From the NCBI GenBank assembly GCA_003220795.1, contig QHTK01000047.1, positions 222 through 64,221 on the forward strand: a DNA stretch of 64,000 nt. The letters run 5' to 3'. Both the position numbers and the translations under genes were made by a program. Position 1 is the first letter of the stretch. Each line of letters starts with the position of its first letter. This document shows, one piece after another, positions 42,071-56,415 of the stretch. This DNA comes from Gemmatimonadota bacterium. GTDB lineage: Bacteria; Gemmatimonadota; Gemmatimonadetes; Gemmatimonadales; GWC2-71-9. Below the pieces are notes generated by a model that saw only the letters and a list, made by a program, of their open reading frames with translations, had not been told where the DNA came from and ran no database searches.

Positions 42071-43276
42071 GTGAGTACCGAGACCCTGCAGCACGTCGCG
42101 CTCTTCGACAAGTGCAAGAACTTCACGCGGGCCGACGAGGTGCGAGCGGCCGGGTTGTACGCGTGGTTCAAACCGATTTCGCAGTCGGAAGACACGGTCG
42201 TGGTGATCGAAGGCAAGCCGCGCATCATGATGGGCTCCAATAACTACCTCGGGCTGACGCATCACCCCGAGGTGCTTGCCGCGGCGAAAGAGGCGCTCGA
42301 CGAATTCGGCTCCGGCTGCACCGGCAGCCGGTTTCTCAACGGGACACTGGAGCTGCACTGCCGGCTCGAGGCCGAGCTGGCCGAGTTCTTCGGGAAGGAA
42401 GCATGCCTCGTCTTCTCGACCGGCTATCAGGCGAACCTCGGCCTGATCTCCGGCCTCGTGGGTCGGGGCGATGTCGTGTTCCTCGACAAGCTCGATCACG
42501 CGTCCATCGTGGACGGCGCGAAGCTGTCCCACGGCGAAACCATGCGCTTCAACCACGGGGACTTGGCCGGCCTCGAGCGCAAGCTCCAGAAAGTGCCGGT
42601 CGGGACGGGCGTCATGATCATCGTCGACGGGGTGTTCTCGATGGAGGGGGACATCGCCGACGTGCCGAACCTGCTCAAAGTCGCCCAGAAATACGGTGCC
42701 GCACTCGCGATCGACGACGCGCACGCCGTGGGGGTGCTCGGCCCCAACGGGGACGGGACCGCGGCGCATTTCGGTGTGGCCGAAGACGTGGACCTCATCG
42801 TGGGCACCTTCTCGAAGTCGCTCGCCTCGATCGGCGGGTTCGTGGCGGCTTCCGAAGACATCATCGATTATCTGCGGCACCACTCGCGGCCCCTGATGTT
42901 CACGGCGGCGCTCCCGCCGGCGAACACCGCCGGGGTGCTCGCCGCGCTGCACGTGCTACGGCGCGAGCCCGAGCGCCGGGAGCAATTGTGGGCCAACACG
43001 CATCACCTGCAAGAGGGGCTGCGCTCGCTCGGATTCGAGATCGGGCCCACCGAGACCCCGATCGTCCCCTTCCTCATCGGGGACTTCGAGAAGACGTTGA
43101 CGTTCTGGCGCAAGCTGTTCGACGCCGGCGTCTTCACGAATCCTGTGGTGCCGCCCGCCGTGCCGCCGTCGCAGAGCCGGCTGCGGACCAGCGTGATGGC
43201 GACCCACACCGCCGATCAGTTGGACTTTGCCTTGCAGACCTTCGGCCGGCTGGGAAAAGAGCTGGGGGTCATCTGA
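42071..43276 (+). CDS. PLP-dependent alpha-oxoamine synthase, serine palmitoyltransferase-like
   Basis: It has GSNNYLGL, FGSGCTGSRFLNGT, STGYQANLG, DDAHAVG, GTFSKS (PLP lysine) and RPLMFTAALPP. The GTG at 42071 follows a GGGGG stretch. The family call is firm; the Spt sub-assignment rests on gene context. Confidence 0.85.
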   Translation: MSTETLQHVALFDKCKNFTRADEVRAAGLYAWFKPISQSEDTVVVIEGKPRIMMGSNNYLGLTHHPEVLAAAKEALDEFGSGCTGSRFLNGTLELHCRLEAELAEFFGKEACLVFSTGYQANLGLISGLVGRGDVVFLDKLDHASIVDGAKLSHGETMRFNHGDLAGLERKLQKVPVGTGVMIIVDGVFSMEGDIADVPNLLKVAQKYGAALAIDDAHAVGVLGPNGDGTAAHFGVAEDVDLIVGTFSKSLASIGGFVAASEDIIDYLRHHSRPLMFTAALPPANTAGVLAALHVLRREPERREQLWANTHHLQEGLRSLGFEIGPTETPIVPFLIGDFEKTLTFWRKLFDAGVFTNPVVPPAVPPSQSRLRTSVMATHTADQLDFALQTFGRLGKELGVI

Positions 43277-44388
43277 GCGCACTGGAGATCGCGCCCGTCA
43301 CCGGCGGGCGCGATCTCGAGCGCTTCATCGCCTTTCCGTACGCGCACTATCGGGGCGACCCGCTCTGGGTCCCACAGCTGCGCATGGACGTGCGCACACT
43401 GCTCTCCCCCGCGAAGAACCCGTTCTTCCGGCACGCCCAGGTCCAGTGCTTCATCGCCCACGCCAACGGCCGGACCGTGGGGCGGATCGCCGCCATCCAG
43501 AACGACGCCCACACCCGGGAGCACGGAGATCGGGTCGGGTTTTACGGCTTCTTCGAAAGCGTGAACGACCAGACGGTGGCAACCGCGCTGTTCGACGCGG
43601 CCGTGGCCTGGCTCCGGCCCCGGGGGCTCGCGGTCCTGCGCGGGCCGATGAGCCCCTCCATCAACGACGAGTGCGGTCTGCTGGTGCAGGGATTCGATAC
43701 CCCACCTACACTGATGATGTCGCACAACCCCTCCTACTACGTCGACCTGCATCAGCGCTACGGCTTCGCGAAGGCCAAGGATCTGCTGGTATACGAGAGC
43801 ACGACCACGCGACTCCCCGAGCGGATCGTGCGGGCCGTCACCGTGATCGCGCAACGCAAGGGCATCACGCTGCGGGCCCTCAACATGAAGCGCTTCCGAG
43901 CCGAGGTCGAGCTCGTCAAGGCACTCTACAACGACGCGTGGGAGAAAAACTGGGGGTTCGTGCCGCTGACCGAGGCGGAGATCGACCATCTCGCCACGCA
44001 GCTCAAGCCCATCGTCGTCCCGGACCTCGTGTGCTTCGCCGAACGGGCGGGCAAGGTCATCGGGTTCGCGGTGGCCCTGCCCGACCTGAACGTCGCACTC
44101 CGGCACAACCCGTCGGGCCGCATGTTCCCCGGCATCCTCAAGGTCCTGTGGCATGCGCGCAAGGTGAACCGCCTTCGTATTCTGCTGCTCGGCGTGCTGC
44201 CGCAGTACCGCTCGAGCGGCGTCGACGCGCTGCTGTACCACTGGATCTGGACCAAGGGGGTCGCCCATGGGTTCACCTGGGGCGAGGGGGGCTGGATCCT
44301 CGAGGACAACGCGGCGATGAACAACGCCGCCGTACAGCTCGGCTTTCGGCCCTACCGCACCTACCGGATCTACGACAAGCCCCTGTGA
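43273..44388 (+). CDS. GNAT-like N-acyltransferase (~370 aa), candidate bacterial ceramide synthase
   Basis: This is the real C-terminal part of composite track ORF 42403..44388 (LEIAPVTGGRDLERFIAFPY ... GVLPQYRSSGVDALLY ... GWILEDNAAMNNA). It has no canonical start near its N-terminus; a CTG at 43273 overlaps the upstream TGA. Confidence 0.65.
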   Translation: MSALEIAPVTGGRDLERFIAFPYAHYRGDPLWVPQLRMDVRTLLSPAKNPFFRHAQVQCFIAHANGRTVGRIAAIQNDAHTREHGDRVGFYGFFESVNDQTVATALFDAAVAWLRPRGLAVLRGPMSPSINDECGLLVQGFDTPPTLMMSHNPSYYVDLHQRYGFAKAKDLLVYESTTTRLPERIVRAVTVIAQRKGITLRALNMKRFRAEVELVKALYNDAWEKNWGFVPLTEAEIDHLATQLKPIVVPDLVCFAERAGKVIGFAVALPDLNVALRHNPSGRMFPGILKVLWHARKVNRLRILLLGVLPQYRSSGVDALLYHWIWTKGVAHGFTWGEGGWILEDNAAMNNAAVQLGFRPYRTYRIYDKPL

Positions 44389-45353
44389 AGGCGTTCGTCA
44401 CCGGCGGGACGGGGTTCGTCGGCGCCCACCTCGTGCAGACGCTGCTGGCGCGGGGCGCGGAGGTGCGCTGCCTCGTACGCAACCCCGCCAAGGCCCTGGC
44501 CCTCGGCTGGCGGGACGTGCGCCTCGTCCGCGGCGATCTGGACGACGCCGCCGCGCTGGCGGAGGGCTGCGCGGGAGCGGAGCTGGTGTTTCACCTCGCC
44601 GGCCGCATCAGCGCCCGCGATGTGCGGGAGTTCATGAGCGCGAACCGCGACGGCACGGCCAGCGTGCTCGAGGCCGCCTCGCTCCAGCCGCCCCAGCGCT
44701 TCGTGCTCGTCTCATCGCTCGCCGCCGGCGGCCCCACCACGCCGGGACATCCGATCGACGAGGAGCGCCGCCCCGCGCCGGTGACGCCCTACGGCCAGAG
44801 CAAGCTCGCGGCGGAGATCGTGGTCCGGGCGATGCCGTTCCCCTGGACCATCGTGCGCCCCCCGGCCGTGTATGGCGAGCGGGATCGCGAGACCCTCAAG
44901 GTGTTCAAGTTGGCACGCCGGGGACTCGTGCCCGTGTTCGGTGACGGATCCCAGGAGCTGTCGGTCGTCTACGCAGGAGACCTGGCGGCTGCACTGGTGG
45001 CCGCGGCAACCTCCCCCGGAGCGGCGCGTAAGGTATACTACGCGGCGCATCCCGCGGTCACGACGAGCGCCGCACTGGTACGAGCTGTGGGCCGCGCGGT
45101 GGGACGTGAGCCGCGCCTCCTACCGCTGCCGGCGCCGGTCGCGCGCGTGATGCTCTGGGCCATCGGATCGCTCGCTCACCTCGCAGGCCGGGCGACGGTG
45201 CTGTCGGCCGACAAGGCGGCCGAGTTTCTGGCTCCCGCCTGGACCTGCCGACCGGACGCGCTGATGCGGGACACGGGATGGTCCGCCGCTACCGATCTGA
45301 ACGCCGGGTTGCAACGCACGGCGGACTGGTACCGGAGGGAGGGGTGGCTGTGA
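44385..45353 (+). CDS. NAD(P)-dependent epimerase/dehydratase-type extended SDR, candidate ketoceramide reductase
   Basis: It has the Rossmann motif VTGGTGFVGAHL and a catalytic YGQSK. The GTG overlaps the upstream stop (GTGA). Confidence 0.85.
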   Translation: MKAFVTGGTGFVGAHLVQTLLARGAEVRCLVRNPAKALALGWRDVRLVRGDLDDAAALAEGCAGAELVFHLAGRISARDVREFMSANRDGTASVLEAASLQPPQRFVLVSSLAAGGPTTPGHPIDEERRPAPVTPYGQSKLAAEIVVRAMPFPWTIVRPPAVYGERDRETLKVFKLARRGLVPVFGDGSQELSVVYAGDLAAALVAAATSPGAARKVYYAAHPAVTTSAALVRAVGRAVGREPRLLPLPAPVARVMLWAIGSLAHLAGRATVLSADKAAEFLAPAWTCRPDALMRDTGWSAATDLNAGLQRTADWYRREGWL

Positions 45354-46306
45354 GCGACACGTCACACGACGCCACGACGGCGCGCCCCAAGGATACCTGG
45401 GCGACGTGGCGCCGTGCCGTCGTGCGGCGCTTCACCGCCGTCGATCTCGTCACCCTGTTGTACGTAGCGGTCGCCACCGTCGCCGTCCTGGCGTTCACCG
45501 CCGACGACCGCACGGGCTGGGACTGGCTGCTGCTGGCGCATGCACTGCTGGTCGCGCTCGTGCTGCTCGCCCCGCGGGCGCGCGAGGCGGGGCGCGTCGG
45601 ACGGTTCCTCGGCGACTGGTACCCTATGCTGTTGCTCGGCGGCCTGTACGCCGAAGTGGGCGTGCTCAACGTCGACGTCGGCTACCAGCACGACGTTACG
45701 ATTCAGCGCCTCGAGTTGTGGGTGTTCGGCTCGCAGGTGTCGTACCGCTGGATCCGCGAGTGGCCCAACCCGGTGTTCTCGTGGATCATGCACATCTGCT
45801 ACATCGCCTACTACGCGATCTTGTGCGCCTCGCCGCTCGGCCTGTGGCTCAGCGGGCGGCGCGACGCCGCGCGGCGCACGATCTTCGCCGTGATGATCAC
45901 GTTCTATCTCTGCTACGTCGTGTTCCTCTTCTTTCCCGTGGCCGGGCCGCGCTACGCCTTCGACCTCGCGCACAACGCCGCCACCGAGATCTGGCCGGCG
46001 CGCGCCACCCAGTGGCTGCTCGACCGCGGGGACTCCTGGGGCGCGGCCTTCCCGTCGTCGCATGTGGCCGCCGCCGTGGTCGCCACGATCTGCGCGCTGC
46101 GCTACTGGCGGCCCCTCGGGCTCGCGCTCGTGCCGCTGACGCTCGGGCTGGTCCTGTCGGTGGTGTACGGGCAGTTCCACTACGCGGTGGACGCCGTGTC
46201 GGGCCTGTTCGTGGCCGGCGCCGTACTCGCGTCGCAGTACGTGTACGGCGCGGAGCCGGAGAAGGTCGGTGCCTCGCTGCCCGCCGGGAGCTGGGAGCGG
46301 GCCTGA
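45350..46306 (+). CDS. polytopic PAP2_C-type protein, sphingomyelin / inositol-phosphorylceramide synthase-like head-group transferase
   Basis: It has about six TMs, FPSSHVAAA and QFHYAVDAVSGLFVAG (the H/H/D motifs of the SMS/AUR1 branch), and lacks the KxxxxxxRP motif of true phosphatases. The GTG overlaps the upstream stop (GTGA). Confidence 0.7.
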   Translation: MSDTSHDATTARPKDTWATWRRAVVRRFTAVDLVTLLYVAVATVAVLAFTADDRTGWDWLLLAHALLVALVLLAPRAREAGRVGRFLGDWYPMLLLGGLYAEVGVLNVDVGYQHDVTIQRLELWVFGSQVSYRWIREWPNPVFSWIMHICYIAYYAILCASPLGLWLSGRRDAARRTIFAVMITFYLCYVVFLFFPVAGPRYAFDLAHNAATEIWPARATQWLLDRGDSWGAAFPSSHVAAAVVATICALRYWRPLGLALVPLTLGLVLSVVYGQFHYAVDAVSGLFVAGAVLASQYVYGAEPEKVGASLPAGSWERA

Positions 46307-46387: not shown

Positions 46388-46990
46388 TCAACGACTGACG
46401 CTCGCGGCTCGCGAAGCGACCGTGTCGAGGTCTCCCCCGAGGGCGTCCATGCGGCGTTGGAACTGGAGATCGATCAGCAGCAACCCGACGACGTACGCCG
46501 CCAGATTCACCACAAACACGATCGTGAAGATCCGCGGGTACGGCAGCCAGATTCCGAAATAGAGCGCGAACCGCTTGACCCCCGGGTCGAGCCCCGAGCG
46601 ATCCGTGATACTCGTCATGAGCAGAATCGCGACCAGCGCGAGCAGAACGAGCTTGACCGGAACGATCCCGGCCGCGGCGAACCCCGCGAAGATGACCGCT
46701 TCGGACGCCCGGTCGAGGCGTGTGTCGAGCCGCCGCCCCGCGTCGGAGGCGAGCCCGAACTCACGGGCGATCCCGCCGTCGATCCCGTCCAAAACCTGCC
46801 CCAACGCCATCAGGCCGAGGCCCCAACCCAGGCGACCGGCGGCGACGCTCGCGCCCGCGACGACGCTCACCCCGAAGGCCGCCCAGGTCACCTGCGCGGG
46901 CGACAGACCGAGTCTCAGGTGCGCGAACCGCAGCAGCGGGCGGATCGCCCGGTCTAATGCCTTGCCCAGTACAGGAGCAAATTCGTACAT
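46388..46990 (-). CDS. CDP-alcohol phosphatidyltransferase-family protein (minimal, ~200 aa)
   Basis: The signature [26 protein letters not shown] fits DGxxARx8Gx3Dx3D. The ATG at 46990 (MYEFAPVL) overlaps the upstream gene by 37 nt. Confidence 0.8.
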
Positions 46991-47391
46991 AGCAGGACGG
47001 CGAAGAGGACCCCTTCCTTCACCTTGTCGGGAATCCCCGTGAGCCACCCGCGGGTCACCCAGGGGGAGTAGGGGTACAGCGGCATCTTCTCGAAGCGGAC
47101 ACTGTAGTCCATGGCCACGTGGATCGCGAAGAACACCAGCGGGATGACGGTTCCGAGTAACCAGCACAGCGGCGTGATCCAGAGCAGCGCCACCGGCTCC
47201 TGCAACGACGAGCGCCAGTAGTAGCCGCGCTTGTCCACGAGCCCCACCGCCCGCAGGTAGAAAGGCGCCTTCACCGCATGGTCGACATCCACCCCGATCC
47301 CGAAGGCGTACGCGAGGGCGGCGTCGCGTCCGTGTAACTCCATCGCCTGCACGCCGAGCGTGGTGGCGAGGATGTGCGTGAAGACGGTCAC
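46954..47391 (-). CDS. small membrane protein, DUF457/YdjM-like metal-dependent hydrolase fold (tentative)
   Basis: A GTG at 47391 overlaps the upstream stop (GTGA). It has [13 protein letters not shown]...GVDVDHAV...HVAMD, a His/Asp pattern like the YdjM family. Confidence 0.5.
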
Positions 47392-48389
47392 GGCGCGGTG
47401 GCGCCCTCCCCGGCCGGCTGCCGTCCCGCCAGCCAGACGAGCGCGAGCCCGACGCCGATCCACGCCATGTCGCGCAGCCGGCTCACGATGGCGGTATAGA
47501 CGCCCAGCGCGGGATCGAGGCCCAGGAGCTGAAAGAAGAGGTACAGCGAGCCCTCCTTCGTGCCGACTTCGAAGGGCACGAAGAAGATCGTGTTCTGAAT
47601 CAGCGAGGTGAGCCCGCCGATGGCATACGCCTGAAAGTAGGTCATGTGCAGGCCCACGCCGAGACCGATCAGTACATACTCGAGCATGAAGATCGAGCGA
47701 CTGAGATACTCGAGGAGGAGCGCCTGAAAAAATCGCCCCGGTCGCCTGTGATAGAACTCCGTGATCTGCACGTCCATCTGGGCTAGCGTGGCCCGCAGAG
47801 ACTCGAGGCGCCGCGCCAGGCGGTGGAGCAAGGGGAGGCGGTGGATCAGGTCGAGCGCGCGCTCCAGCACGCCACGGCGGTGTCCCGTTAGCAGCAGCCA
47901 GCACAGAAGCGCCAGCACCACGAAGGCGACGGCCAACCCGGCGAGCAGCGCCGCGTGAGGGGGCAGGAGGAGAGCCCCGAGCACGATCGCCGTCAGGAAG
48001 CTCAGCAGCATGCCGAGCGTGTGCAGCATCTGATAGATCACGACCGAACCGGCCGCGCGCCGCACCCCGAGCCAGCGCGCCGCCGCCGCGATCTTGAACG
48101 GCTCACCCCCCACGTTGACCATCGGCGTGACGAAGTTGAGCGAGAATCCGGCGACGGTGATCGCGTACGCGCGCCAGAACGGCGGGCGAATCGGCTCGTC
48201 GGCCATGATCAGCCACCACGCCGACGTGTTGCAGGCGTAGACCACGCCGTACAGGATGAGGATCGGAACGAAGATCCATCCCGTGTGCTCCGCGTCGGCG
48301 AGCAGCCGCGCCACACCGATACGCGCCACCAGGTAGGCGAAGATCGCCGAGCCACAGACGAACAGCAGCGCTTGCAGCTTGCGGCTCAC
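47388..48389 (-). CDS. UPF0104 / lysyl-PG-synthase-TM (MprF flippase-like) domain membrane protein
   Basis: It has about eight TMs and [19 protein letters not shown], the conserved TPxxxGGEPxK motif. The GTG at 48389 overlaps the upstream stop (GTGA). Confidence 0.75.
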
Positions 48390-49411
48390 GCGTTTTCCGG
48401 GATGGCGACCCTGCAGCCGGTGTTGGCGGCCTGGTAAGCATGCTCGACCACGACCGCGACGCGGCGGATGTCCTCGAGGTAAGGGGCGGCGGCGTGGACC
48501 GGATCGCCCCGGTCGAGGGAGGCGATGAACGACGCGAAGAGGCCGGCGAACCAGCGGTGGTACGCCGCCTTGTCGAGCTCGGCCGAGAAATCGTGTCGCT
48601 CGAGCCTGCCCCCGCGCTCGAGCCGCAGCTCGCCGCCGACCCACTCGATGGCGCCGTGCTCGCCCGCGAAGCGGATGCGATTCTCGCGCTGGCGCGCAGC
48701 CCAGGTGAAGAACATCGTGACCAGCCGCTCGGGGTACTCGAAGTGCACCGACGCGGTGTCCTCGACCTCGTAGGCGCGGTGGCGCAGGCGGCCGGTCCAG
48801 GCGCTCACCGCGGCGGGCAGCCCCGCGACGTCGAGCATCTGGTAAATGAGATGGGTGCCGTGGTCGAGCAGCACGCCGCCCCGCCCCGCCGCGCTCGTCC
48901 CGCGCCACGGCGTCCCGCCGGCTTCACGGCCGGGGTCAGCGGTAAGCCGATAGACCGCGAGCTCGGCGAGGTGCCAGCGCCCGATCGCACCCTCGCGCAA
49001 CCATTCCTTCACTTTGACCCACACGGGGTTGAACCGGTACTGGTGACACGGCATCACGATCCGGCCGTGCGCGCGCGCCGCGGCGGCGATACGGTCCGCT
49101 TCGACCCGCGTGAGCGCGACCGGCTTCTCACAGACGACGTGGTAGCCTCGCTCGAGGCCCCAGAGGGTGAGGTCGAGATGCGAGGCCGTCGGCGTACAGA
49201 TGTCGATGAAGTCGAGTGGCCCTACCCGGGCGAGCTGCTCGGGGTGCGAGAGCAGCGGGATGCCGTCGACCGGCGGCACGTCGACGGCGCTGTCCACGAC
49301 GGCGACGATGTCGATGCGCGCACGCACGCCGGCCCCCGTCCGCAGGGCGGGGAGATGCGACTGCCGCGCCGTGCCGCCCGCCCCGATGACGGCACCCCGG
49401 TACCGCTGCAC
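48386..49411 (-). CDS. Gfo/Idh/MocA-family NAD(P)-dependent oxidoreductase
   Basis: It has the N-terminal Rossmann GAVIGAGGTARQSHLPAL, CEKPVALT and a C-terminal alpha/beta domain. The GTG at 49411 lies 1 nt after the upstream stop. Confidence 0.85.
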   Translation of the reverse strand: MQRYRGAVIGAGGTARQSHLPALRTGAGVRARIDIVAVVDSAVDVPPVDGIPLLSHPEQLARVGPLDFIDICTPTASHLDLTLWGLERGYHVVCEKPVALTRVEADRIAAAARAHGRIVMPCHQYRFNPVWVKVKEWLREGAIGRWHLAELAVYRLTADPGREAGGTPWRGTSAAGRGGVLLDHGTHLIYQMLDVAGLPAAVSAWTGRLRHRAYEVEDTASVHFEYPERLVTMFFTWAARQRENRIRFAGEHGAIEWVGGELRLERGGRLERHDFSAELDKAAYHRWFAGLFASFIASLDRGDPVHAAAPYLEDIRRVAVVVEHAYQAANTGCRVAIPENA

Positions 49412-49412
49412 G

Positions 49413-50327
49413 TCAGGTGAAGCGGGCGTAGGCATTGCGCTCGTGCTCGAGCGCGTCGCTGAGCGCCGTGGCGTTCCATTCATGCATCAGCAGCAGTACC
49501 ACGAGGAGCAGACTCATCGGCACCGCCTCGGCCCACAGGAACGCCGAGATGTGGCCCGCCACCGCCGCCGCGCCGAGCAGCAGGAAACGGATGTTCTGGC
49601 CCAGCCAGCTGCACAGCGGCAGCAGCACCTCCTGACGCTCGCGGTACTCCTCCCGGAAGGCCGGGGGCACGCTGCGCCCTCCGGCTCCGCCGGCCCGCAG
49701 CAGCCGCAGCAGCTTGACCGAGCGGGGGAACAGCTGCGACTGCCGCACGACGTAGTCCCGGTACACGCGCGCGCCGAAGCGCTCCAGCACCGTGCCTGCG
49801 GATCCGGCCTCCAGATCTTCGGGGAGATCGAGCTCTCCTGCCTTGCCCGTGCCCAAATCGAGGAAGGCATTGCGGATGAAATCCACCGCGGCGCTCTGGT
49901 AGGTGTGGGCGAGACCGGCGAGCGCGACCAGCAATACGCCCGCCCACCACACACCGCCGTGCATCAGCCGGTACATCAGGTGGAAGTACAGATTGACGAA
50001 TCGCAGGTTGTCGTTGATGCCGTCGAGCGCCCGGCCGAACCGAGTCGAGGTGCCGCGCAGCCGGGCGAGCTGGCCGTCCGCCGAATCGAACACGTCCGAC
50101 ACGATGAAGAGCACGAACCCGATGACGTCGATCCAGCGGTCCTGGTACACGAACAGATGGCCCGCCACCAGGCCCACCAGCAGCGACCACAGCGTGACCT
50201 GGTCGGGCGAGATGCCAGTCGAGTAGAGCGCCCGCGCGATCCGGATCCCGATGGGCCGGAAGAAGCGCAGGTCGAGCCATTCCTCGACCGCGCGACCCTT
50301 ATCCGACAAATCGTTCCGCGGCTTCAC
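49413..50327 (-). CDS. CDP-alcohol phosphatidyltransferase-family protein (304 aa)
   Basis: The signature DSADGQLARLRGTSTRFGRALDGINDN matches the family motif, and it has multiple TMs. Confidence 0.85.
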   Translation of the reverse strand: MKPRNDLSDKGRAVEEWLDLRFFRPIGIRIARALYSTGISPDQVTLWSLLVGLVAGHLFVYQDRWIDVIGFVLFIVSDVFDSADGQLARLRGTSTRFGRALDGINDNLRFVNLYFHLMYRLMHGGVWWAGVLLVALAGLAHTYQSAAVDFIRNAFLDLGTGKAGELDLPEDLEAGSAGTVLERFGARVYRDYVVRQSQLFPRSVKLLRLLRAGGAGGRSVPPAFREEYRERQEVLLPLCSWLGQNIRFLLLGAAAVAGHISAFLWAEAVPMSLLLVVLLLMHEWNATALSDALEHERNAYARFT

Positions 50328-51633
50328 CGAGTACGTCCTTCATGGTGGCGAGGGCGCCCATCGCCTGGTCCTCCTCGATGACCAGGGGCGGGTTGATTCG
50401 CACCTCGGGATTGTAGATCATCGCGAGCACGCCGCGCGACAGCAGGGTGTCGAAGATCCATCGCGTCGCTTTCTTGTCGAGCAGTTTGCGGGTCCCCGGC
50501 ACCACGAGGTCCAGGCCGATCAGCAAGCCGCGGCCGCGCACGTCCGACACGATCGGCAGCTCCGATTCCCAGCGCCGCAGCTCGGCCAGCATCTTGGCGC
50601 CGAGGCGCCGGGAGTGCTCGACCAGCCCATCCTCGATGATCGTCTCGACGGTGATGCGGGCGGCCGCCGCCGCGAGCGGATTCCCGCCATAGCTCGACGA
50701 GCTGCCGCTTGGATTGGCGAACGGCTTGGCGAACGCAAGCTCTTCGCGCGCGATGATGCCGCTCATGGGGAAGCCGCCCCCGAACCCCTTGCCGATCGTG
50801 ATCACGTCGGGAATCACGTCCTCGTGCTCGATGGCGAACATCTTCCCGGTGCGCCCGAACCCGGTGATCATCTCGTCGCAGATCAGGAGCGCGCCGAGCT
50901 CATCCGCGAGGAGACGCAATGCCCGGAGGTAGCCGGGCGGCGGCACGACATTGCCCGCCGTGCCCTGGATCGGCTCGACGATGATCGCCGCCACGTCCTT
51001 GGTGGTCTCGAGCTCCACCTTCTGCCTGAGGAACTCCACGCAGTGCCATTCGCACGACGGAAAGGTCTTGTCGAAGGCGCAGCGCGCGCACGCCGCGTAG
51101 GGTGAGAGATAGGCGCCCGGCATGAGCGGCCCGAGCGCGTGCTTGAAGCTCGCGCCGAGCACGGGGAGCACGCCGCCGGTCTTGCCGTGGAAGCCGCCCC
51201 AGAATCCCAGGACCTCGGTATGCCCGGTGCGCGACTTCGCCAGGCGGAGCGCTGCCTCCACCGCCTCCGCACCGCTCGAATAGAATTGCGTCCGGTTCAA
51301 GTCGCCGGGCGCGAGCTCCGCCAGCAGCTGGACCAGCGCCGCGCGGTGCTCGGTCGTGAAGCTGCCGACGTGAATTCGGGCGATCTGGCGCTGCAGCGCC
51401 GCCACGTAGCGGGGATGGGCGTACCCGAGGCTCGCGACGCCGACCCCCGCGAGCAGGTCGATGTAGCTGTTGCCGTCCACATCGTACAACACGGCGCCTT
51501 CGCCGCGATCGATCGAGAGCTGGCTGAATAGCGCTACGCTCTGGGTCCCGGGAGCGAGATACAGCGCCTCGCGGTCGAACAGGGCCTTCGACTTGGGGCC
51601 GGGAACCTGAATCCTGCGGATTGTATGGGTCAC
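50299..51633 (-). CDS. class-III (ornithine/GABA-type) PLP aminotransferase
   Basis: It has SGAEAVEAALRLA, EPIQGTAGNV, LICDEMITGFGRTGKMFA and TIGKGFGGGFP (PLP lysine). The GTG overlaps the upstream stop (GTGA). Confidence 0.9.
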   Translation of the reverse strand: MTHTIRRIQVPGPKSKALFDREALYLAPGTQSVALFSQLSIDRGEGAVLYDVDGNSYIDLLAGVGVASLGYAHPRYVAALQRQIARIHVGSFTTEHRAALVQLLAELAPGDLNRTQFYSSGAEAVEAALRLAKSRTGHTEVLGFWGGFHGKTGGVLPVLGASFKHALGPLMPGAYLSPYAACARCAFDKTFPSCEWHCVEFLRQKVELETTKDVAAIIVEPIQGTAGNVVPPPGYLRALRLLADELGALLICDEMITGFGRTGKMFAIEHEDVIPDVITIGKGFGGGFPMSGIIAREELAFAKPFANPSGSSSSYGGNPLAAAAARITVETIIEDGLVEHSRRLGAKMLAELRRWESELPIVSDVRGRGLLIGLDLVVPGTRKLLDKKATRWIFDTLLSRGVLAMIYNPEVRINPPLVIEEDQAMGALATMKDVLGEAAERFVG

Positions 51634-52472
51634 GCGTGTTTCCGGTGTGCGAACCGATGAGTGACATAGTCGGCAATGGCTCGCGCCGCTTCGTCACGGA
51701 ACGGCGCGAAGCTCGGCCAGTCGTTGATGTCGATGAGCACGGGGCGATCGGGCTCGGGGAACGCGACGTCGCCCCCGAACACCTCGAGCCCCAGGATCGC
51801 CGCCGCTTCGAACGCCAGCGCCTTCAGCCGATTCTCGTCGATCTTGGGCCGCTCGCCCGCCAACCCCGCGTCCGAGCCGTACCAACGGAAGAAGCGCCCG
51901 TCGGTCACCCCGTAGAACTTCACGATCGGGCCGGGCACGTGCTCCTGCAACGCGACCCAGGGGATGCCGCGCGCCGTGAACGCGTGCAGCTCGTCCGCGA
52001 TGCGCTCGCGCGAGGTCGCCACGACGTCTTCGGGACGCTCGGCGTGCACGTCGCCCCGCTTGATCCACACCTTGCGATCGTCCGGGTAAAAGGCGTCGAC
52101 TTGCTCCGGCGACAGCGGCGCCGAGCTGGCGAGGATGAGCGTGCGAGGGAACGACAGGGTGCTGTCCCCGAGCCGCTTCACCAACCGGTAGCGGTGACAG
52201 TTGAGCGCGCTCGACGGGCGGTTGACGACCACCGCTCCATCGCTCTCCAGCGGCATCAGCTGCTCCGCGGCGAGCGACCCCTGACACATGTTCAGGTACA
52301 ACGCCGCGACCGGCAGGCGTCCCTGCTCGACCTCGCGCTCGCTGGTCTTGACGGCGTTCCACCCGCTCCTGGCGAGCTCCGAGACGGTGGCGTCCAGGAT
52401 CGCGGTGTCGTTCACCCGATGTTGCATCGGCGAATACGACGGGCTGCGATAAATCGCGACCAGTTGCGTCAA
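51630..52472 (-). CDS. ATP-grasp-fold protein, inositol-phosphate-kinase (ITPK1)-like or RimK-like
   Basis: The C-terminal GLEVFGGDVAFPEPDRPVLIDINDWPSF resembles the FGxDxx...VIDINxFPG strand-loop of ITPK1-type ATP-grasp enzymes. The assignment is tentative. Confidence 0.6.
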   Translation of the reverse strand: MTQLVAIYRSPSYSPMQHRVNDTAILDATVSELARSGWNAVKTSEREVEQGRLPVAALYLNMCQGSLAAEQLMPLESDGAVVVNRPSSALNCHRYRLVKRLGDSTLSFPRTLILASSAPLSPEQVDAFYPDDRKVWIKRGDVHAERPEDVVATSRERIADELHAFTARGIPWVALQEHVPGPIVKFYGVTDGRFFRWYGSDAGLAGERPKIDENRLKALAFEAAAILGLEVFGGDVAFPEPDRPVLIDINDWPSFAPFRDEAARAIADYVTHRFAHRKHA

Positions 52473-52499: not shown

Positions 52500-53213
52500 T
52501 CAGGCCTCGCGCGCGGCCAGCCACGCGTTGGCAGTTTGCAGATCTGATGGACGATCGATATCGATGATGCGCGGCACCTCGACCACTCCCACCCGCCCAC
52601 CGTCGGCGACCACGCCGGCCAGGTACCGTCGCATCTTGTGCAAGCCGCGGTCGACGGCGTCGGCCGCAGCGTCGCGGGCCCCGGCGCTCAGGCCGTAGAC
52701 GCCGCCCGTGACGCAGCGCGGGTGGAGCGGCTTGTCGCTGACGGAGCGGACGAAACCGTCTTCCCCTGTGCTCACGTACACTGGAGACTCGTCATCCACG
52801 TACGGCGTCACAGCGAGCACCATGTCGGCGCCCTCGGCCAGCTGGCGCTCCGCCCCGCTGTAGACCGCTTGCCAGTCGTGCGGTCGCATCACCGTGTCCA
52901 CCATACTGCAGAACACCGGGCCCGGCGCCACCGCGTGGAGCCCCTCGACCAGCGTGTGGAGCGACGAGGGGGTGCGGCACTCGATCACCTTAAGGGGGCG
53001 CCCAAACCGGGTTCCGTCAAGCACGCGCCGCACCATCGGGAAGTCCGCACGAACTGCACACGTGAGACTGGTGCACCCGAGGGCCTCGAACGTCTCGAGC
53101 AAGCGCACAATCTGCGGCCTCCCGGCCACCTGCACGAGGGGCTTGGGAGGCGATCCCTCTCCTGCGGTTGCGAGCCGCGAGCCTTCCCCGCCCGCGAGGA
53201 TCAAACCGTGCAC
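52500..53213 (-). CDS. nucleotidyltransferase (sugar/alcohol-phosphate NTP transferase, GlmU/LicC/IPCT-like)
   Basis: It has the N-terminal (GTG)HGLILAGGEGSRL signature and a Rossmann-like 237-aa body. Confidence 0.85.
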   Translation of the reverse strand: MHGLILAGGEGSRLATAGEGSPPKPLVQVAGRPQIVRLLETFEALGCTSLTCAVRADFPMVRRVLDGTRFGRPLKVIECRTPSSLHTLVEGLHAVAPGPVFCSMVDTVMRPHDWQAVYSGAERQLAEGADMVLAVTPYVDDESPVYVSTGEDGFVRSVSDKPLHPRCVTGGVYGLSAGARDAAADAVDRGLHKMRRYLAGVVADGGRVGVVEVPRIIDIDRPSDLQTANAWLAAREA

Positions 53214-53214
53214 G

Positions 53215-53841
53215 CTAGTCGAGGATCCTTTCGATCTCGGGGAGCCGCGCGATGCGCGCCGTGGGGTCGGGCCCCGGCGGCTGCTCCCGGTCCGGCGGCG
53301 CCAGCCAGCACGTCCGTAGCCCGAGCCCGGCGGCCCCCCCGATGTCCGCCTCGAAGTTGTCGCCCACCATCCAGGCGCGGTCCGCGGGCGCCCCGCCCAG
53401 CGCGCCCAGCGTCTCGCGGAAGATCCGGGGATCGGGTTTGGCCGCGCCTACCACGGCCGAGTCGCTGACTGCCGTGAACAGCCGGGCCAGGCCGAGCTCG
53501 TCCAGACAGGGCGCCAGGTTCCCCGTGAAATTCGAAACGATGCCAAGACGGTAGCGACGCGCGAGGCGCTCGAGCACGGGCTGGTTGCGCGTCGCGATCG
53601 CACGTGCCTGGGCATGAAACTGCTCCGCCATCCGCCCCGCATCGACCGCCGCGCGGTCGGGCACGAGCTCGAGCAACAGGCTGGTCTGCTTCTCGATCAT
53701 CTGCCGGAAGCCGAAGCGGCGGATGTCGGCCGTCCGGGCCAGTGTCTCGTCCGCCCGTTGGTAGAGCGGCTCGAACGCCGCATAGCCGAGCGCGCCGCCG
53801 GCCGCCCGGTACGCCGCGTGGAAGCGCGGGCTCCAATGCAC
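53215..53841 (-). CDS. HAD-superfamily hydrolase/phosphatase (subfamily IA-like)
   Basis: It has motif II (LGIVSNF), motif III (AKPD) and motif IV (VGDNFEADIGGA). Motif I (LFDFGGTLD) lies in frame upstream of the first canonical start, so the true 5' end is probably near 53886-53901 (see findings). Confidence 0.8.
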   Translation of the reverse strand: MHWSPRFHAAYRAAGGALGYAAFEPLYQRADETLARTADIRRFGFRQMIEKQTSLLLELVPDRAAVDAGRMAEQFHAQARAIATRNQPVLERLARRYRLGIVSNFTGNLAPCLDELGLARLFTAVSDSAVVGAAKPDPRIFRETLGALGGAPADRAWMVGDNFEADIGGAAGLGLRTCWLAPPDREQPPGPDPTARIARLPEIERILD

Positions 53842-53893
53842 GCCATCGGCATCGAGGGTCCCGCCGAAGTCGAAGAGGACGACCTCAGTGGTC

Positions 53894-54982
53894 CTAGTGA
53901 TGCCCGTGGCCCGCGCCGTGCTCGTGCATCGGCAGCTTCATCGGCATGGCGTCCGCCATCCGCATCTCGTGCCCGCCGCTCTGCCGCATGTAGTGGCGGT
54001 AATCCTGCTGATACAGCGAGTCCGAGCGGTCGGCGGGTGGCCACTCGACGCCACGGTCGGGCACGAACAGCCCGCCCACGACTCCCATCCCGCCGTCCGG
54101 GACCGCCTGGCCGGTAGGATTGTCGTAGTAGACGGTCACGCGGTAGCGGTGGTCCGGAGCGATGTGGGCGCCGAGTCGCGTCCAGCCGTACAGGCGACTG
54201 ATCGGGACGGAGTGGATGTGCCCCACCGAGTCGGCGATCGGCGCGGCCCGGTAGATGACCTGCCCCGCCGTCACGTCGACGAACTCGATCAGCCGTCCGT
54301 GGTCGTGCATGTGGCCACCCAAGCCGACGATTTTCCCCGGCACGGCCGGGCTCCCCTCGTAGGAGCGCTGCGAGCGCCCCGGCGGGAGCGCGAAGGACTT
54401 GTCCCCCACCGGGAAGGCGACGTCCATCTGCCAGGGCGACGCGCGGAACAAGGGCCAGGGCCGGCCCGTCGGCGTGAAATCCATCACGAGCCGCACCCGC
54501 GCCTCGTGGTAGGTAACCGGAGTGAGGTTCTCGACCATCGCGCTCGCGACGACGTGCTCGCCGCGGCGCAGCGGCAACCCGAACAGGAGGCCCGGCAGCC
54601 GTACGGCGCCGGTCTCGTGTCCTGCCGCGAGTAACCGGCGCGAAATCGGGAGAAACAGCTCGCGGTGGTCCGGGTCGATCAGGTTGAAGTGATGGATGAG
54701 CTCGTCGGACAGCTCGCGACCGGCGCTGTCTACCACCGCGACGCGAAACCCGTGGATGTAGCCGTCGCTCGGAATCTCGAGCGTCGCGACGGGCGGCTGC
54801 GCCAGCGCGTGGTGCGGCGTCCGGGCCGGGAGCTCCAGGGGCGCGAGATCGATCACCAACGCACCGCGCCCCGGATCGGTGAAGATGCGAGCCCCGGCGG
54901 GGTCTGGCGCACCAGGAGAGCGCCCATCGCCCGGCCCGAGTGCGAGCAGCAGGGCGACCGGCAGCAAGCGATGTCCCGTCAT
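53894..54982 (-). CDS. secreted hypothetical protein, possible PHM/DBH-like copper monooxygenase fold with His/Met-rich C-terminal tail
   Basis: It has a signal peptide. The ordered HH (ELIHHFNL) ... H (TYHEARV) ... HxH (GGHMHDHG) ... M (DGGMGVV) spacing is reminiscent of CuH/CuM sites. The tail is HEMRMADAMPMKLPMHEHGAGHGHH. The ATG overlaps the upstream stop (ATGA). Confidence 0.45.
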   Translation of the reverse strand: MTGHRLLPVALLLALGPGDGRSPGAPDPAGARIFTDPGRGALVIDLAPLELPARTPHHALAQPPVATLEIPSDGYIHGFRVAVVDSAGRELSDELIHHFNLIDPDHRELFLPISRRLLAAGHETGAVRLPGLLFGLPLRRGEHVVASAMVENLTPVTYHEARVRLVMDFTPTGRPWPLFRASPWQMDVAFPVGDKSFALPPGRSQRSYEGSPAVPGKIVGLGGHMHDHGRLIEFVDVTAGQVIYRAAPIADSVGHIHSVPISRLYGWTRLGAHIAPDHRYRVTVYYDNPTGQAVPDGGMGVVGGLFVPDRGVEWPPADRSDSLYQQDYRHYMRQSGGHEMRMADAMPMKLPMHEHGAGHGHH

Positions 54983-55902
54983 GGCGGGGAAGTGTAATAG
55001 CGGCCGCCGATCTGAGGCAACCGACCCTCCCCGAGCCCGTCGCCCGAGTGGAGGCGCTGCACGGCCGCCACCACTGCGGCGGGCCGCTCCTCATAGACGA
55101 AGTGGCCCGCGCCGGGCACGGTGTCCACCGCGAATGAGCGGAGCAGTCCCGCGAGCGTGGCCACCTCCTGCGGGCTCACGCCGGACCCGCGGCCGACGGT
55201 GCCCACGACGAGGCGCACCGGGCAGCGGATCTCCCCGAGGTGCGGCGCGAGGCGATCGCTCTCGTGCGCCCGCGCCATCGCCAGATAGGCCTTGAGCGTC
55301 CCAGCGAGGTCGCGCGCGGCCCCGGCCGTGTAGCCTTCGACGACCTGATCGGTCACCCACGTCGTGTCGCCCGATGCGGCGATCAGACCGCGCCGGACCT
55401 TGGCTCGGACCAATCGCTCGCCGCCGAACAGCTTGATCCACGGCGCGAGCTGAATCGCCCGACGGAAGCCGCGGGTCGTGGCGGCCTCGGCGGGGCCGCC
55501 GTCGAGTGACACGATACCCCGAACCAGATCGGGCCGCCGATACGCGAGCCGGTAGGCGATCGCTGCGCCGACCGAATGCGCGACGACGATCACGTCGCCC
55601 ACGCCCAGACGGTCGAGCGCGGCGGCCACTCGATCGGCCTGCGCAGTGAGCGAATAGTCAGCGTGCTCGGGCCGACCCGAGGTGCCGATGCCGAGCGGCT
55701 CGATCACAATCGTGCGATACCCCGCCTCGACGAGCCTCGGCAGTACAGTGCGGTAGCCAAACGCCGACCCGAACAACCCCGGAATGAGCACAACGGGGTC
55801 GCCCACTCCCTCGACCGTTACCCATACTGACTCGGCCGGCGCGAGGGCGATTGAGAAGGCGCGCGATGTATCCGCGAGCAGCAGCACGATGAGGAGCCAC
55901 AT
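54979..55902 (-). CDS. alpha/beta-fold hydrolase
   Basis: It has the oxyanion HG region VVLIPGLFGS, the nucleophile elbow VVAHSVGA and a C-terminal GAGHFV. Confidence 0.85.
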   Translation of the reverse strand: MWLLIVLLLADTSRAFSIALAPAESVWVTVEGVGDPVVLIPGLFGSAFGYRTVLPRLVEAGYRTIVIEPLGIGTSGRPEHADYSLTAQADRVAAALDRLGVGDVIVVAHSVGAAIAYRLAYRRPDLVRGIVSLDGGPAEAATTRGFRRAIQLAPWIKLFGGERLVRAKVRRGLIAASGDTTWVTDQVVEGYTAGAARDLAGTLKAYLAMARAHESDRLAPHLGEIRCPVRLVVGTVGRGSGVSPQEVATLAGLLRSFAVDTVPGAGHFVYEERPAAVVAAVQRLHSGDGLGEGRLPQIGGRYYTSPP

Positions 55903-55905
55903 CGG

Positions 55906-56415
55906 TCACTCCGCAGGAAGCAGACGGCGAGCGACGGTGAGCACGACGAACGCGACGGTGCCGGCGAGCAGGAGCCAGGTCGGCATGTCCACCAAGACGC
56001 CGAATCCGGCGATCAACAGCAAGCGCGGGAAGCGTCCGAACGCAACGGCCGCGAGGAACTTGGAGAGTGGGTAGCGCGAGAGCGGCGCGAGAATCCTCAC
56101 CGCAGAGTCGGGGATCGGCGAGAAGATCACGATAGCCGTCGTCCAAAAGGGCGCGCGCGAGAAGGCGTCGATACTCCACCGTACGGCTTTCCCGGCCTTC
56201 AACGCCGAGACCTTCGGCGACTCGGCCGCCCAATCGACGAGCCGGTAGTTTACCGCCTCGGCCAGCGACGCGGCCGCCGTCCCTACCAGTGCCAGCACCC
56301 ACGCCGGATAGAAGCGGGCGTAGTAGAGGAGGGTGGCTTCGAACGCCGTCGGGAGCAGCGGCGAGAGCGGGCCGTGCACGAACAGCGCGACCAGAAAGAA
56401 AGTCCCGAGCTTCAT
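55906..56415 (-). CDS. DedA/VTT (SNARE-associated) family membrane protein
   Basis: FSPIPDSAVRILAPLSRYPLSKFLAAVAFGRFPR resembles the VTT-domain re-entrant loop. The ATG at 56415 overlaps the upstream stop (ATGA). Confidence 0.65.
   Translation of the reverse strand: MKLGTFFLVALFVHGPLSPLLPTAFEATLLYYARFYPAWVLALVGTAAASLAEAVNYRLVDWAAESPKVSALKAGKAVRWSIDAFSRAPFWTTAIVIFSPIPDSAVRILAPLSRYPLSKFLAAVAFGRFPRLLLIAGFGVLVDMPTWLLLAGTVAFVVLTVARRLLPAE

Follow-up and report, generated by a model that had tools for sequence, protein, structure and literature searches.

The window, a 64,000-nucleotide stretch of a Gemmatimonadota genome, carries a class-III aminotransferase gene (AT3), a CDP-alcohol phosphotransferase gene (CDP1) and a Gfo/Idh/MocA dehydrogenase gene (GFO) head to tail on the minus strand within 48386–51633, in an order conserved far beyond chance. 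We give a probability of about one half to the reading that the module containing them makes an inosamine-phosphate head group, carried on a sphingolipid or phospholipid; in this genome, the lipid bearing amino-inositol phosphate would probably be a sphingolipid. Gene identities, catalytic motifs, synteny, fusions, phyletic pattern and the AT3 active site are the observations from which we infer a substrate, an order of steps and a product. If true, an amino-inositol phosphate lipid is a lipid class so far undescribed. To our knowledge, the head groups of bacterial sphingolipids are phosphoglycerate, phosphoethanolamine, phosphoinositol and sugars, and none is an amino-cyclitol.

A conserved seven-gene module

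The preliminary description placed the three genes side by side in one operon. All three are real and their adjacency holds across relatives; they are the middle of a seven-gene, minus-strand module. In order, it encodes a HAD-IA hydrolase with an atypical motif I, D-F-G-G-T-L (53215..53901; PF00702, PF13419), a MobA-like nucleotidyltransferase, presumed to be a CTP:alcohol-phosphate cytidylyltransferase (52500..53213; PF12804, E 4.8e-12, and PF00483), an ATP-grasp protein of 280 aa (51630..52472), AT3, of PLP fold type I and a module-specific subfamily (50299..51633), CDP1, 304 aa with a C-terminal extension (49413..50327; PF01066, E 2.7e-12), the NAD(P)-dependent GFO (48386..49483; PF01408, E 4e-16, PF22725, E 1.6e-22, and PF02894) and, last, a flippase-like membrane protein of the LPG_synthase_TM/HpnL-like type (47388..48389; PF03706, E 1.7e-25; 68 bits against TIGR03476 HpnL, cut-off 195). 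The genes for AT3, CDP1 and GFO overlap or abut. CDP1 begins at a GTG (50327) 29 nt within the AT3 gene, the likeliest true start of GFO is a GTG at 49411, two bases past the upstream stop codon, which gives 341 aa, and reading of the upstream sequence places HAD motif I before the first canonical start codon. An ATG ORF at 49480–50280, considered as the CDP-alcohol gene, was rejected: it overlaps in a different frame and has no family match.

The seven-gene order is fixed in all 19 loci taken from the phylum's sampled genomes and in 73 out of another 80; seven are truncated at contig boundaries and no locus shows an alternative order, so that the order was seen in all 92 related Gemmatimonadales loci of sufficient length. 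The module is conserved in soil Gemmatimonadales and extends to three or more further bacterial phyla; the same set of enzymes was seen in L051 (an Elusimicrobiota MAG), L132 (a Planctomycetota MAG) and L137 (a metagenome contig of 297 kb). Elsewhere its domains are fused as nucleotidyltransferase-ATP-grasp (in Planctomycetota, Thermoanaerobaculia and Elusimicrobiota proteins), HAD-nucleotidyltransferase-ATP-grasp, ATP-grasp-HAD, ATP-grasp-CDP-transferase, HAD-CDP-transferase and HAD-flippase-like proteins. These fusions among the non-amination enzymes, in which the ATP-grasp protein is joined to the nucleotidyltransferase, HAD and CDP-alcohol transferase of other lineages, indicate that those enzymes serve one process.

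Downstream on the same strand lie TMx, a small membrane protein without a Pfam match (46954..47448), and a second, minimal CDP-alcohol phosphotransferase with an intact motif, CDP2 (46388..46975; PF01066, E 4.1e-10). The two occur together in about 60% of related loci and TMx is always paired with CDP2. Convergent to the module, on the plus strand, is a ceramide operon (42071..46306) whose products are by Pfam Spt-like, GNAT (bCerS-like), epimerase/SDR (CerR-like) and PAP2_3/PAP2_C (Aur1/SMS-like). Upstream, an accessory minus-strand block (53894..56745) found in only some related loci encodes an exported protein with no assigned family (53894–54982) and, by Pfam, an alpha/beta hydrolase (54979–55902) and a DedA/VTT protein (55906–56745).

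The aminotransferase and its dehydrogenase partner

The class-III assignment of AT3, made in the preliminary description, is borne out by PF00202 (E 3.8e-93). The same description held that its reading would fail if the aminotransferase clustered tightly with housekeeping ArgD/GabT and the dehydrogenase with sugar-catabolic enzymes, or if neither acted on polyols or cyclitols. AT3 does not group with ArgD or GabT: it forms its own clade with 100/100 support, scores under every curated NCBIfam cut-off (262 bits against 410 for argD and 270 against 507 for GabT) and has orthologues in 24/151 genomes of the phylum (not found in 127/151), where it always adjoins GFO. Comparison of the active site with GabT and ArgD shows that the substrate-carboxylate Arg141 and the switch Glu211 are replaced in every module copy; the AT3 signature in GabT numbering is K141, T211, M241, I242 and S297, with the PLP lysine (K268), the aspartate (D239) and the arginine that holds the donor's alpha-carboxylate (Arg398) kept. 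A paralogue in the same genome retains the GabT signature, in contrast to AT3.

GFO carries a Rossmann motif together with EKP and D-x3-H motifs, whose catalytic Lys, Asp and His are conserved in orthologues of four lineages, although copies from other phyla share just 28–31% identity with the window GFO, which counts against our reading. Its top NCBIfam and PDB matches are sugar/cyclitol ring dehydrogenases, all far under curated cut-offs. The nearest named relatives, levoglucosan dehydrogenase, UDP-GlcNAc 3-dehydrogenase and DgpA (hexose/glycoside 3-dehydrogenases), oxidise hydroxyl groups on hexose or inositol rings. The score against IolG, 49.7 bits for a cut-off of 355, also counts against our reading. 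In two genomes that are 99% and 100% complete (G104 and G111), AT3 and GFO are adjacent and CDP1 and the ATP-grasp protein were not found, which indicates that the pair works on a soluble substrate. This co-travel, even where lipid genes were not found, supports GFO and AT3 as an oxidation-amination couple.

Such couples are known from aminocyclitol and amino-sugar pathways, including StrI/StsC (scyllo-inosamine) and NtdC/NtdA/NtdB and RifL/RifK/RifM (kanosamine). As described, they resemble the module in combining a Gfo/Idh/MocA dehydrogenase, which generates a ring ketone, with a PLP aminotransferase that turns this ketone into an amine, and in the HAD phosphatases, kinases and nucleotidyltransferases that accompany the pair. 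However, StsC, NtdA and RifK are described as DegT/AHBA-synthase-type whereas AT3 is class III, and those pathways yield antibiotics or free amino sugars rather than the lipid head group that we propose. Class-III aminotransferases usually use aldehydes or omega-amines rather than ring ketones, which also speaks against our reading; ValM of the validamycin pathway is a class-III enzyme that acts on a cyclitol ketone phosphate.

Links to inositol and membrane lipid

The earlier suggestion of an amino-polyol or inosamine-type phosphate head group gains support from comparative context, which points to inositol and membrane lipid. The gene for inositol-phosphate synthase (MIPS) is adjacent in four related loci, of Elusimicrobiota (L051), Bacteroidales type (L136), Gemmatimonadales (L092) and the 297-kb contig (L137), and stands next to AT3/GFO-bearing modules in three lineages. 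Against this, MIPS is unlinked to the module in the window and in 79/80 Gemmatimonadales loci, and the source genome also encodes a canonical PIP-synthase-MIPS pair. The presence of MIPS does not discriminate, because 142/151 genomes of the phylum have it whether or not they bear the module.

A putative 'alternative inositol lipid cluster' was described in Bacteroides (Phocaeicola) vulgatus and Prevotella, hosts that produce inositol sphingolipids, the function of the cluster itself being unconfirmed (Heaver et al., 2022; PMC9246714). Both systems have a nucleotidyltransferase, a CDP-alcohol phosphotransferase of extended architecture and a HAD hydrolase, often with an LPG-synthase-like membrane protein close by in the Bacteroidales case, and the four non-amination enzymes of the module, with MIPS, correspond to the B. 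vulgatus-type cluster. That cluster is tied to MIPS and sphingolipid-making hosts, whereas MIPS of the window genome sits on a separate contig, and the Bacteroidales-type cluster in L136 lacks both the aminotransferase and the Gfo-family dehydrogenase of the module. The ATP-grasp domain, unmentioned in that study (PMC9246714), is here found fused to HAD in Bacteroidales-type proteins.

CDP1 has a complete catalytic motif (D-x2-D-G-x2-A-R-x8-G-x3-D-x3-D) and its alignment with the corresponding transferase in a Bacteroidales MIPS cluster spans both proteins in full (29% identity, E 3e-29). Its top NCBIfam matches, AIP synthase, PIP synthase and DIPPS, use inositol phosphate, and those of CDP2 are AIP and PIP synthase, all sub-cut-off; the nucleotidyltransferase weakly matches the IPCT part of IPCT/DIPPS. 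The ATP-grasp protein has no Pfam family. Its AlphaFold model (pLDDT 89.6) matches RimK (Z 21.6), LysX/ArgX (20.6), Ddl (20.4) and ITPK1 (18.2), a predicted fold that fits a kinase or a ligase and fails to separate the two. All 93 HAD matches keep the D-x-G motif, as do fusion proteins from other phyla, but the second Asp usual in HAD phosphatases is missing, which makes the phosphorylation steps proposed below uncertain.

The link to lipid is drawn from the neighborhood. The ceramide operon adjoins the module here and in about half of related loci, runs in the same direction as the module in L100, L104 and L106, and has counterparts in the Caulobacter ceramide pathway (Spt, bCerS, CerR) and the eukaryotic IPC synthase Aur1; by analogy, it could provide the ceramide as well as an enzyme that transfers the head group. 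All 22 sampled genomes with the full module have Spt orthologues, MlaEFD genes lie within the module in L137 and MMPL in L138, and every module has the flippase-like gene.

A model consistent with these data starts from myo-inositol phosphate, which the MIPS encoded on the other contig would supply. GFO, with NAD(P)+, would oxidise a single hydroxyl on the ring of inositol or inositol phosphate, and AT3 would transaminate the resulting ketone to an inosamine-type compound. The ATP-grasp protein and HAD would adjust the phosphorylation state, the nucleotidyltransferase would form the CDP-activated alcohol, and CDP1 would move phospho-amino-inositol onto a lipid alcohol, diacylglycerol or ceramide. 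The Aur1-like PAP2 enzyme may then shift the head group to ceramide, and the flippase-like protein would carry the lipid to the outer leaflet. In this chemistry the substrate, the ring position and the placing of amination before or after lipid attachment are all what we infer.

Alternative products

A CDP-activated amino head group of non-inositol origin, transferred to lipid in the same way, is unlikely, though the most probable of the alternatives. GFO and AT3 could convert a hexose phosphate to a kanosamine-like 3-amino-3-deoxy-hexose phosphate, as suggested by the hexose/glycoside 3-dehydrogenases among the best named relatives of GFO, by the parallel of dehydrogenase, aminotransferase and HAD with the Ntd and Rif trios and by a weak match of HAD to an AHBA-synthesis-associated family (E 8e-8); known kanosamine aminotransferases, however, are DegT-type. 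Alternatively, AT3 could aminate an aldehyde, the preferred substrate of class-III enzymes, to an amino-alditol of the aminopentanetetrol type. Aminopentanetetrol phospholipids are real, and we know of no described biosynthetic route to them. The rarity of MIPS linkage in Gemmatimonadales fits either option, but MIPS adjoins AT3/GFO-bearing modules in three lineages, the non-amination core is common to the Bacteroidales inositol-lipid cluster and both CDP-alcohol transferases score best against inositol-phosphate-using enzymes, which argue for inositol.

It is rather improbable that GFO and AT3 do not form an oxidation-amination pair, GFO merely epimerising or oxidising inositol (for example, myo to scyllo) and AT3 being a racemase or lyase or supplying an amine or amino acid for an ATP-grasp ligase. 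Among the solved structures nearest AT3 are racemases of class-III fold (Ala/Ser racemase, a broad-specificity racemase and Ile 2-epimerase), and the ATP-grasp model is slightly nearer carboxylate-amine ligases (RimK, LysX, Ddl; Z 20–22) than inositol-phosphate kinases (Z 17–18). Yet AT3 retains Arg398 and stays beside GFO in the two genomes described above, where no ATP-grasp protein was found. Conversely, the Bacteroidales-type cluster and L138 have the ATP-grasp protein but not AT3, indicating that the ATP-grasp step is independent of any AT3 product.

Still less probable is a soluble phosphodiester, an amino-bearing compatible solute of the di-myo-inositol-phosphate (DIP) type. The DIP pathway of hyperthermophiles (MIPS, IPCT, DIPPS and a phosphatase) shares the enzyme logic of the module: inositol phosphate is activated with CTP and transferred by a CDP-alcohol phosphotransferase, itself a membrane protein in the case of DIPPS, after which a phosphatase acts. 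CDP1 and the nucleotidyltransferase match the IPCT/DIPPS model weakly, with 38 and 21 bits for a cut-off of 580, and are unfused, and the pathway to DIP, a soluble solute, has neither amination nor an ATP-grasp protein. The context of the module is that of a lipid, with its invariable flippase-like gene, HAD-flippase-like fusions, MlaEFD and MMPL genes within related modules, Spt in every sampled full-module genome and a co-directional array with Spt, bCerS and CerR. Finally, automatic annotation of AT3 orthologues as "4-aminobutyrate aminotransferase" or "aspartate aminotransferase family protein" would fit a housekeeping ArgD/GabT enzyme beside a sugar-catabolic dehydrogenase with no joint function, a highly implausible arrangement that is contradicted by the sub-cut-off scores of AT3, its separate clade, its restricted distribution, always next to GFO, and an active site that departs from the GabT signature of its same-genome paralogue.

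Gene order of the module

A conserved module of seven minus-strand genes in the window probably aminates an inositol head group. The preliminary description singled out three of these genes, which Pfam matches and reading of the open reading frames confirm as real minus-strand genes arranged head to tail at 48386-51633: a class-III aminotransferase (AT3, 50299-51633, PF00202, E 3.8e-93), a CDP-alcohol phosphotransferase (CDP1, 49413-50327, PF01066, E 2.7e-12) and a Gfo/Idh/MocA dehydrogenase (GFO, 48386-49483, PF01408, PF22725 and PF02894). Upstream of AT3, on the same strand, are a HAD-IA hydrolase (53215-53901), a MobA-like nucleotidyltransferase (52500-53213) and a 280-aa protein that matches no Pfam family and is assigned to ATP-grasp by its model (51630-52472); downstream of GFO is a flippase-like LPG_synthase_TM protein (47388-48389, minus strand). 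Because the G+C content of the window is about 70%, many spurious ORFs overlap real genes. An ATG ORF at 49480-50280 was rejected as the CDP-transferase, having no family match; the real gene is the overlapping frame of CDP1, which starts with GTG at 50327, 29 nt within AT3. The likeliest start of GFO is a GTG at 49411, two bases past the CDP1 stop, giving 341 aa, the same length as its orthologues. HAD motif I, V-L-F-D-F-G-G-T-L-D, is encoded at 53842-53901 (minus strand), before any ATG, GTG or TTG (the first being the GTG at 53841), and the only plausible start of this gene is an ATC at 53901 that overlaps the TAG with which the preceding gene stops.

CDP1 was used to search 150 genomes of the phylum, 21 of which have full-length orthologues, and the order HAD, nucleotidyltransferase, ATP-grasp, AT3, CDP1, GFO, flippase-like was identical in 19/19 extracted loci. 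When the ATP-grasp alignment was scanned against prokaryotes, each species represented by one genome, it returned at least 589 relatives. Among them the 80 best are all from MAGs, 78 of them with Gemmatimonadetes- or Gemmatimonadota-type names, one labelled 'uncultured bacterium' and one a Candidatus Eisenbacteria MAG; AT3, CDP1 and GFO follow the window's order in 73 of these 80 best loci, the other 7 being ended by contig edges and none rearranged. The window's organism is an uncultured MAG, and the NCBI names of AT3 orthologues with 82-89% identity confirm that it is one of the Gemmatimonadales. Such MAGs filled both the AT3 homologue search and the ATP-grasp related-loci search, and other phyla were reached by a profile search of cluster representatives. 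At 46388-47448 in the window, a 164-aa membrane protein of no known family is encoded, always paired with a second, minimal CDP-alcohol transferase; this pair occurs in about 60% of related loci, on either flank of the module (L092, L093, L129).

Related modules and the inositol reading

With the ATP-grasp alignment the profile search retrieved 417 clusters whose E was no higher than 1e-30. The domain was found fused as nucleotidyltransferase-ATP-grasp, HAD-nucleotidyltransferase-ATP-grasp, ATP-grasp-HAD and ATP-grasp-CDP-alcohol transferase, and further fusions join HAD to the CDP-transferase or to the flippase-like protein. In other phyla the order AT3, GFO, CDP-transferase is found. Inositol-phosphate synthase (MIPS) is encoded beside the module in four loci. 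An Elusimicrobiota MAG (L051) carries genes for the flippase-like protein, HAD-nucleotidyltransferase-ATP-grasp, AT3, GFO, CDP-transferase, an unknown protein and MIPS; a 297-kb metagenome contig (L137) carries nucleotidyltransferase, MlaE, MlaF, MlaD, ATP-grasp, AT3, CDP-transferase, GFO, flippase-like, HAD and MIPS; in a Gemmatimonadales locus (L092) MIPS lies immediately past the flippase-like gene; and a Bacteroidales-type contig (L136) encodes ATP-grasp-HAD, MIPS, a CarbopepD_reg_2/DUF5686 protein, nucleotidyltransferase and CDP-transferase, with neither AT3 nor GFO in the cluster. A Planctomycetota MAG (L132) has the same enzymes with no MIPS within view. The contigs bearing proteins P0127 and P0150 were too short for gene context. 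A variant at L138:2551-11913 consists of GFO, a 472-aa protein of no known family, an MMPL transporter and then HAD, nucleotidyltransferase, ATP-grasp, CDP-transferase and flippase-like, with no class-III aminotransferase in the module.

In the window's own genome MIPS is instead on another contig (C31), directly downstream of a 232-aa PIP-synthase-like CDP-alcohol transferase (L139:8052-10078; 156.9 bits against a cut-off of 170), and the canonical phosphatidylinositol route is probably encoded in this genome too. MIPS is nearly universal in the phylum (142/151 genomes); inositol phosphate is therefore available, yet this favours no reading over another, and MIPS co-occurrence was dropped as a test of the inositol link.

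The nearest known system is no more than a proposal: an 'alternative inositol lipid cluster' was put forward for B. vulgatus and Prevotella, makers of inositol sphingolipids, with the pathway unconfirmed (PMC9246714). Like that cluster, the window's operon brings together a nucleotidyltransferase, a CDP-alcohol transferase and a HAD hydrolase, and the L136 arrangement is the same gene set; unlike it, the module is not directly beside MIPS. CDP1 and the L136 CDP-transferase align over their whole lengths (29% identity, E 3e-29). By this gene-set match and alignment, the window's module is the four-enzyme core of that cluster plus the AT3-GFO couple. Named relatives of the L136 fusion protein come from Bacteroidaceae, Prevotella and Paramuribaculum. 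In Bacteroidales-type MIPS clusters (L136:9001-17226; P0246, P0285-P0321) the protein labelled 'HAD hydrolase' is about 510-570 aa long, a fusion in which the same ATP-grasp family makes up the N-terminal half; this domain is not mentioned for the alternative cluster in Heaver et al. 2022 (PMC9246714).

CDP1 has the complete motif D-x2-D-G-x2-A-R-x8-G-x3-D-x3-D (DSADGQLAR, 8 residues, GRALDGIND; residues 81-109) and scores 47.8 bits against PF01066 (cut-off 22); it stays below the equivalog cut-offs for PIP synthase (NF045883, 39.2 vs 170), AIP synthase (NF040950, 58.3 vs 180) and IPCT-DIPPS (NF041135, 38 vs 580). The AlphaFold model of the 280-aa protein (pLDDT 89.6) has an ATP-grasp fold, confirmed by each of Foldseek, VIA-align and Atlas; ligase-like and inositol-phosphate-kinase-like structures are both among the matches, RimK, LysX and Ddl score slightly higher against the model (Z 20-22) than ITPK1 and PPIP5K2 do (Z 17-18), the model's Atlas neighbours bear both ligase and kinase labels, and the protein's sequence matched no solved structure. 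Motif I of a usual HAD phosphatase is D-x-D. In 93/93 related matches the HAD protein has D-F/Y-G-G-T-L, with Gly in place of the second Asp, a D-x-G form shared by fusion proteins of Elusimicrobiota, Bacteroidales and Prevotella, and because of this replacement it may be other than an ordinary phosphatase.

The most likely mechanism, to which we give a probability of about one half, is attachment of an amino-inositol phosphate head group to diacylglycerol or ceramide. GFO would oxidise inositol or inositol phosphate at a ring hydroxyl, giving a ketone, and AT3 would convert the ketone to an amine; the ATP-grasp protein and HAD would adjust the phosphate pattern, the nucleotidyltransferase would form the CDP-alcohol, CDP1 would transfer phospho-amino-inositol to diacylglycerol or ceramide, a PAP2 enzyme might hand the head group on to ceramide, and the flippase-like protein would export the lipid. 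A version employing every enzyme, which is pure conjecture, would be a Kennedy-type mirror of the PIP-synthase route: an ATP-grasp kinase would make a bisphosphate from Ins-3-P, CDP-inositol-phosphate and then lipid-P-inositol-P would follow, and HAD would strip the extra phosphate from the latter.

That the head group is a non-inositol amino sugar or amino-alditol seems unlikely to us. In kanosamine-type sets (NtdABC/RifKLM) a HAD phosphatase and a 3-dehydrogenase of the Gfo family accompany an aminotransferase of DegT/AHBA-synthase type; the window's aminotransferase is of class III (PF00202), not DegT, and in the module's HAD motif I has no Asp+2.

Few bacteria make inositol lipids or sphingolipids, which matter for the integrity of the envelope and for interactions with host or environment. 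If an inositol head group is aminated here, this would be a new bacterial lipid class. We tentatively suggest, with somewhat less than even confidence, an undescribed class in at least four phyla with an inosamine-phosphate head group, a zwitterionic analogue of phosphatidylinositol or inositol-phosphoceramide, which in soil Gemmatimonadales would be a sphingolipid, made by a Kennedy-type CDP-inositol route needing the overlooked ATP-grasp protein and D-x-G HAD. Both proteins would then also fill gaps in the alternative inositol-lipid pathway of gut Bacteroidetes, itself unproven, and the module would be a genetic handle on its CDP-inositol route; the lipid might be used as a biomarker for the abundant uncultured soil Gemmatimonadales, and class-III aminotransferases would extend to cyclitol ketones in primary lipid metabolism. 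Literature searches on Gemmatimonadetes sphingolipids, inosamine lipids and later work on the alternative inositol pathway found nothing relevant, and we found no paper on an inosamine lipid or characterising the module; a search on aminopentanetetrol gave occurrence reports only. The window contributes a link between the module and a ceramide operon, AT3-GFO pairs that stand alone, a signature of the AT3 active site and a HAD motif of atypical form.

The AT3-GFO couple and the probable membrane link

GFO scores 60.2 bits against PF01408 (cut-off 24) and 80.3 against PF22725 (cut-off 27). It has a Rossmann motif, GAGGTA, at residue 34, and nine orthologues from several lineages share its CEKP (residue 118) and D-H-G-T-H (about residue 207); we take the EKP lysine and the D-x3-H pair to be catalytic. 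Against myo-inositol 2-dehydrogenase (IolG, TIGR04380) it reaches 49.7 bits vs 355, with only the N-terminal half aligned, a low score that weakens the view that GFO is IolG, not that it acts on a cyclitol. We give little credence to the possibility that AT3 and GFO are not a couple working on the head group. In genomes G104 (99% complete) and G111 (100%), both of a sister family, the genes for threonine synthase, AT3 and GFO directly follow one another in that order (L049:8564-12875, L050:8405-12637), no CDP1 or ATP-grasp homologue was found anywhere in either genome, and in the ML tree these AT3 copies nest within the Gemmatimonadales module clade. This adjacency without CDP1 or ATP-grasp argues for joint action, AT3 and GFO apparently forming a couple that acts on a soluble substrate, and the stand-alone pair is consistent with oxidation and then transamination ahead of lipid attachment.

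A soluble product, a solute of DIP type, is still harder to credit. The flippase-like gene is always last in the module, and related modules contain MlaEFD (L137) or MMPL (L138) genes. At L137:6506-9023, in a module with MIPS, the phospholipid-transport genes mlaE, mlaF and mlaD lie between the nucleotidyltransferase and ATP-grasp genes.

The module is convergent with a plus-strand operon (42071-46306) for Spt-like, GNAT, epimerase/SDR and PAP2_3/PAP2_C proteins, which we call the ceramide operon. This operon adjoins the module in about half of 99 loci and forms one co-directional array with it in L100, L104 and L106. Spt orthologues occur in 87/151 genomes and in 22/22 with the full module, and none at E 1e-100 or better was found in the two genomes with AT3-GFO only; since the genomes are interrelated, these counts are descriptive, not a statistical test. 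A hopanoid acceptor is unsupported here because squalene-hopene cyclase (PF13243) was not found in the window's 92%-complete genome. An exported 362-aa protein of no known family (53894-54982) accompanies Spt, not the head-group module, in several loci, and may therefore belong to the ceramide side; the order of this protein, Spt, GNAT and epimerase recurs in L100, L104, L106, L109, L110 and L114. In loci L059 and L077 a further set of epimerase, PAP2 and epimerase genes lies upstream of the exported protein, besides the convergent ceramide operon.

Identity and active site of the aminotransferase

AT3 is a clear class-III enzyme (PF00202, 312.8 bits, cut-off 30.5) that falls below every curated NCBIfam equivalog cut-off, including ArgD (TIGR00707, 261.8 vs 410) and GabT (TIGR00700, 269.7 vs 506.65), its best family being PRK05769 (369 vs 552). 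Orthologues at E 1e-195 or better occur in 24/151 genomes of the phylum, with no match between 1e-110 and 1e-195, and the window's genome has several further class-III paralogues. The preliminary description had asked whether the aminotransferase clusters with housekeeping ArgD or GabT; by these scores, by the 24/151 distribution and by the ML tree, where the module copies form a 100/100-supported clade on a long stem apart from the E. coli enzymes and the paralogues, it does not. 3-Ketosphinganine was rejected as its substrate because AT3-GFO pairs occur in genomes where no Spt orthologue was found.

The class-III signature comprises a PLP-binding Lys, an Asp contacting the pyridine nitrogen and an Arg binding the alpha-carboxylate. 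Aligned with E. coli GabT, ArgD, PatA and BioA from NC_000913.3, AT3 retains K268 (the PLP lysine), D239 and R398 in GabT numbering. The active-site comparison with GabT and ArgD that had also been proposed revealed the loss of Arg141, Glu211 and Gln242, the substitutions being Arg141->Lys, Glu211->Thr, Val241->Met, Gln242->Ile/Leu and Thr297->Ser. That AT3 and GFO are housekeeping enzymes has a negligible chance, ArgD or GabT being ruled out for AT3 by sub-cut-off scores, patchy occurrence, active-site residues and a separate clade. Arg141 binds the distal carboxylate of the substrate and Glu211 acts as a switch gating Arg398; as both are replaced, the amine or carbonyl partner of AT3 very probably has no carboxylate. 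The substitutions are present in 9/9 AT3-clade copies compared, module and stand-alone, Elusimicrobiota and Planctomycetota among them, and R, E and Q stand at positions 141, 211 and 242 in E. coli GabT, in ArgD and in a 40%-identical paralogue on contig C45.
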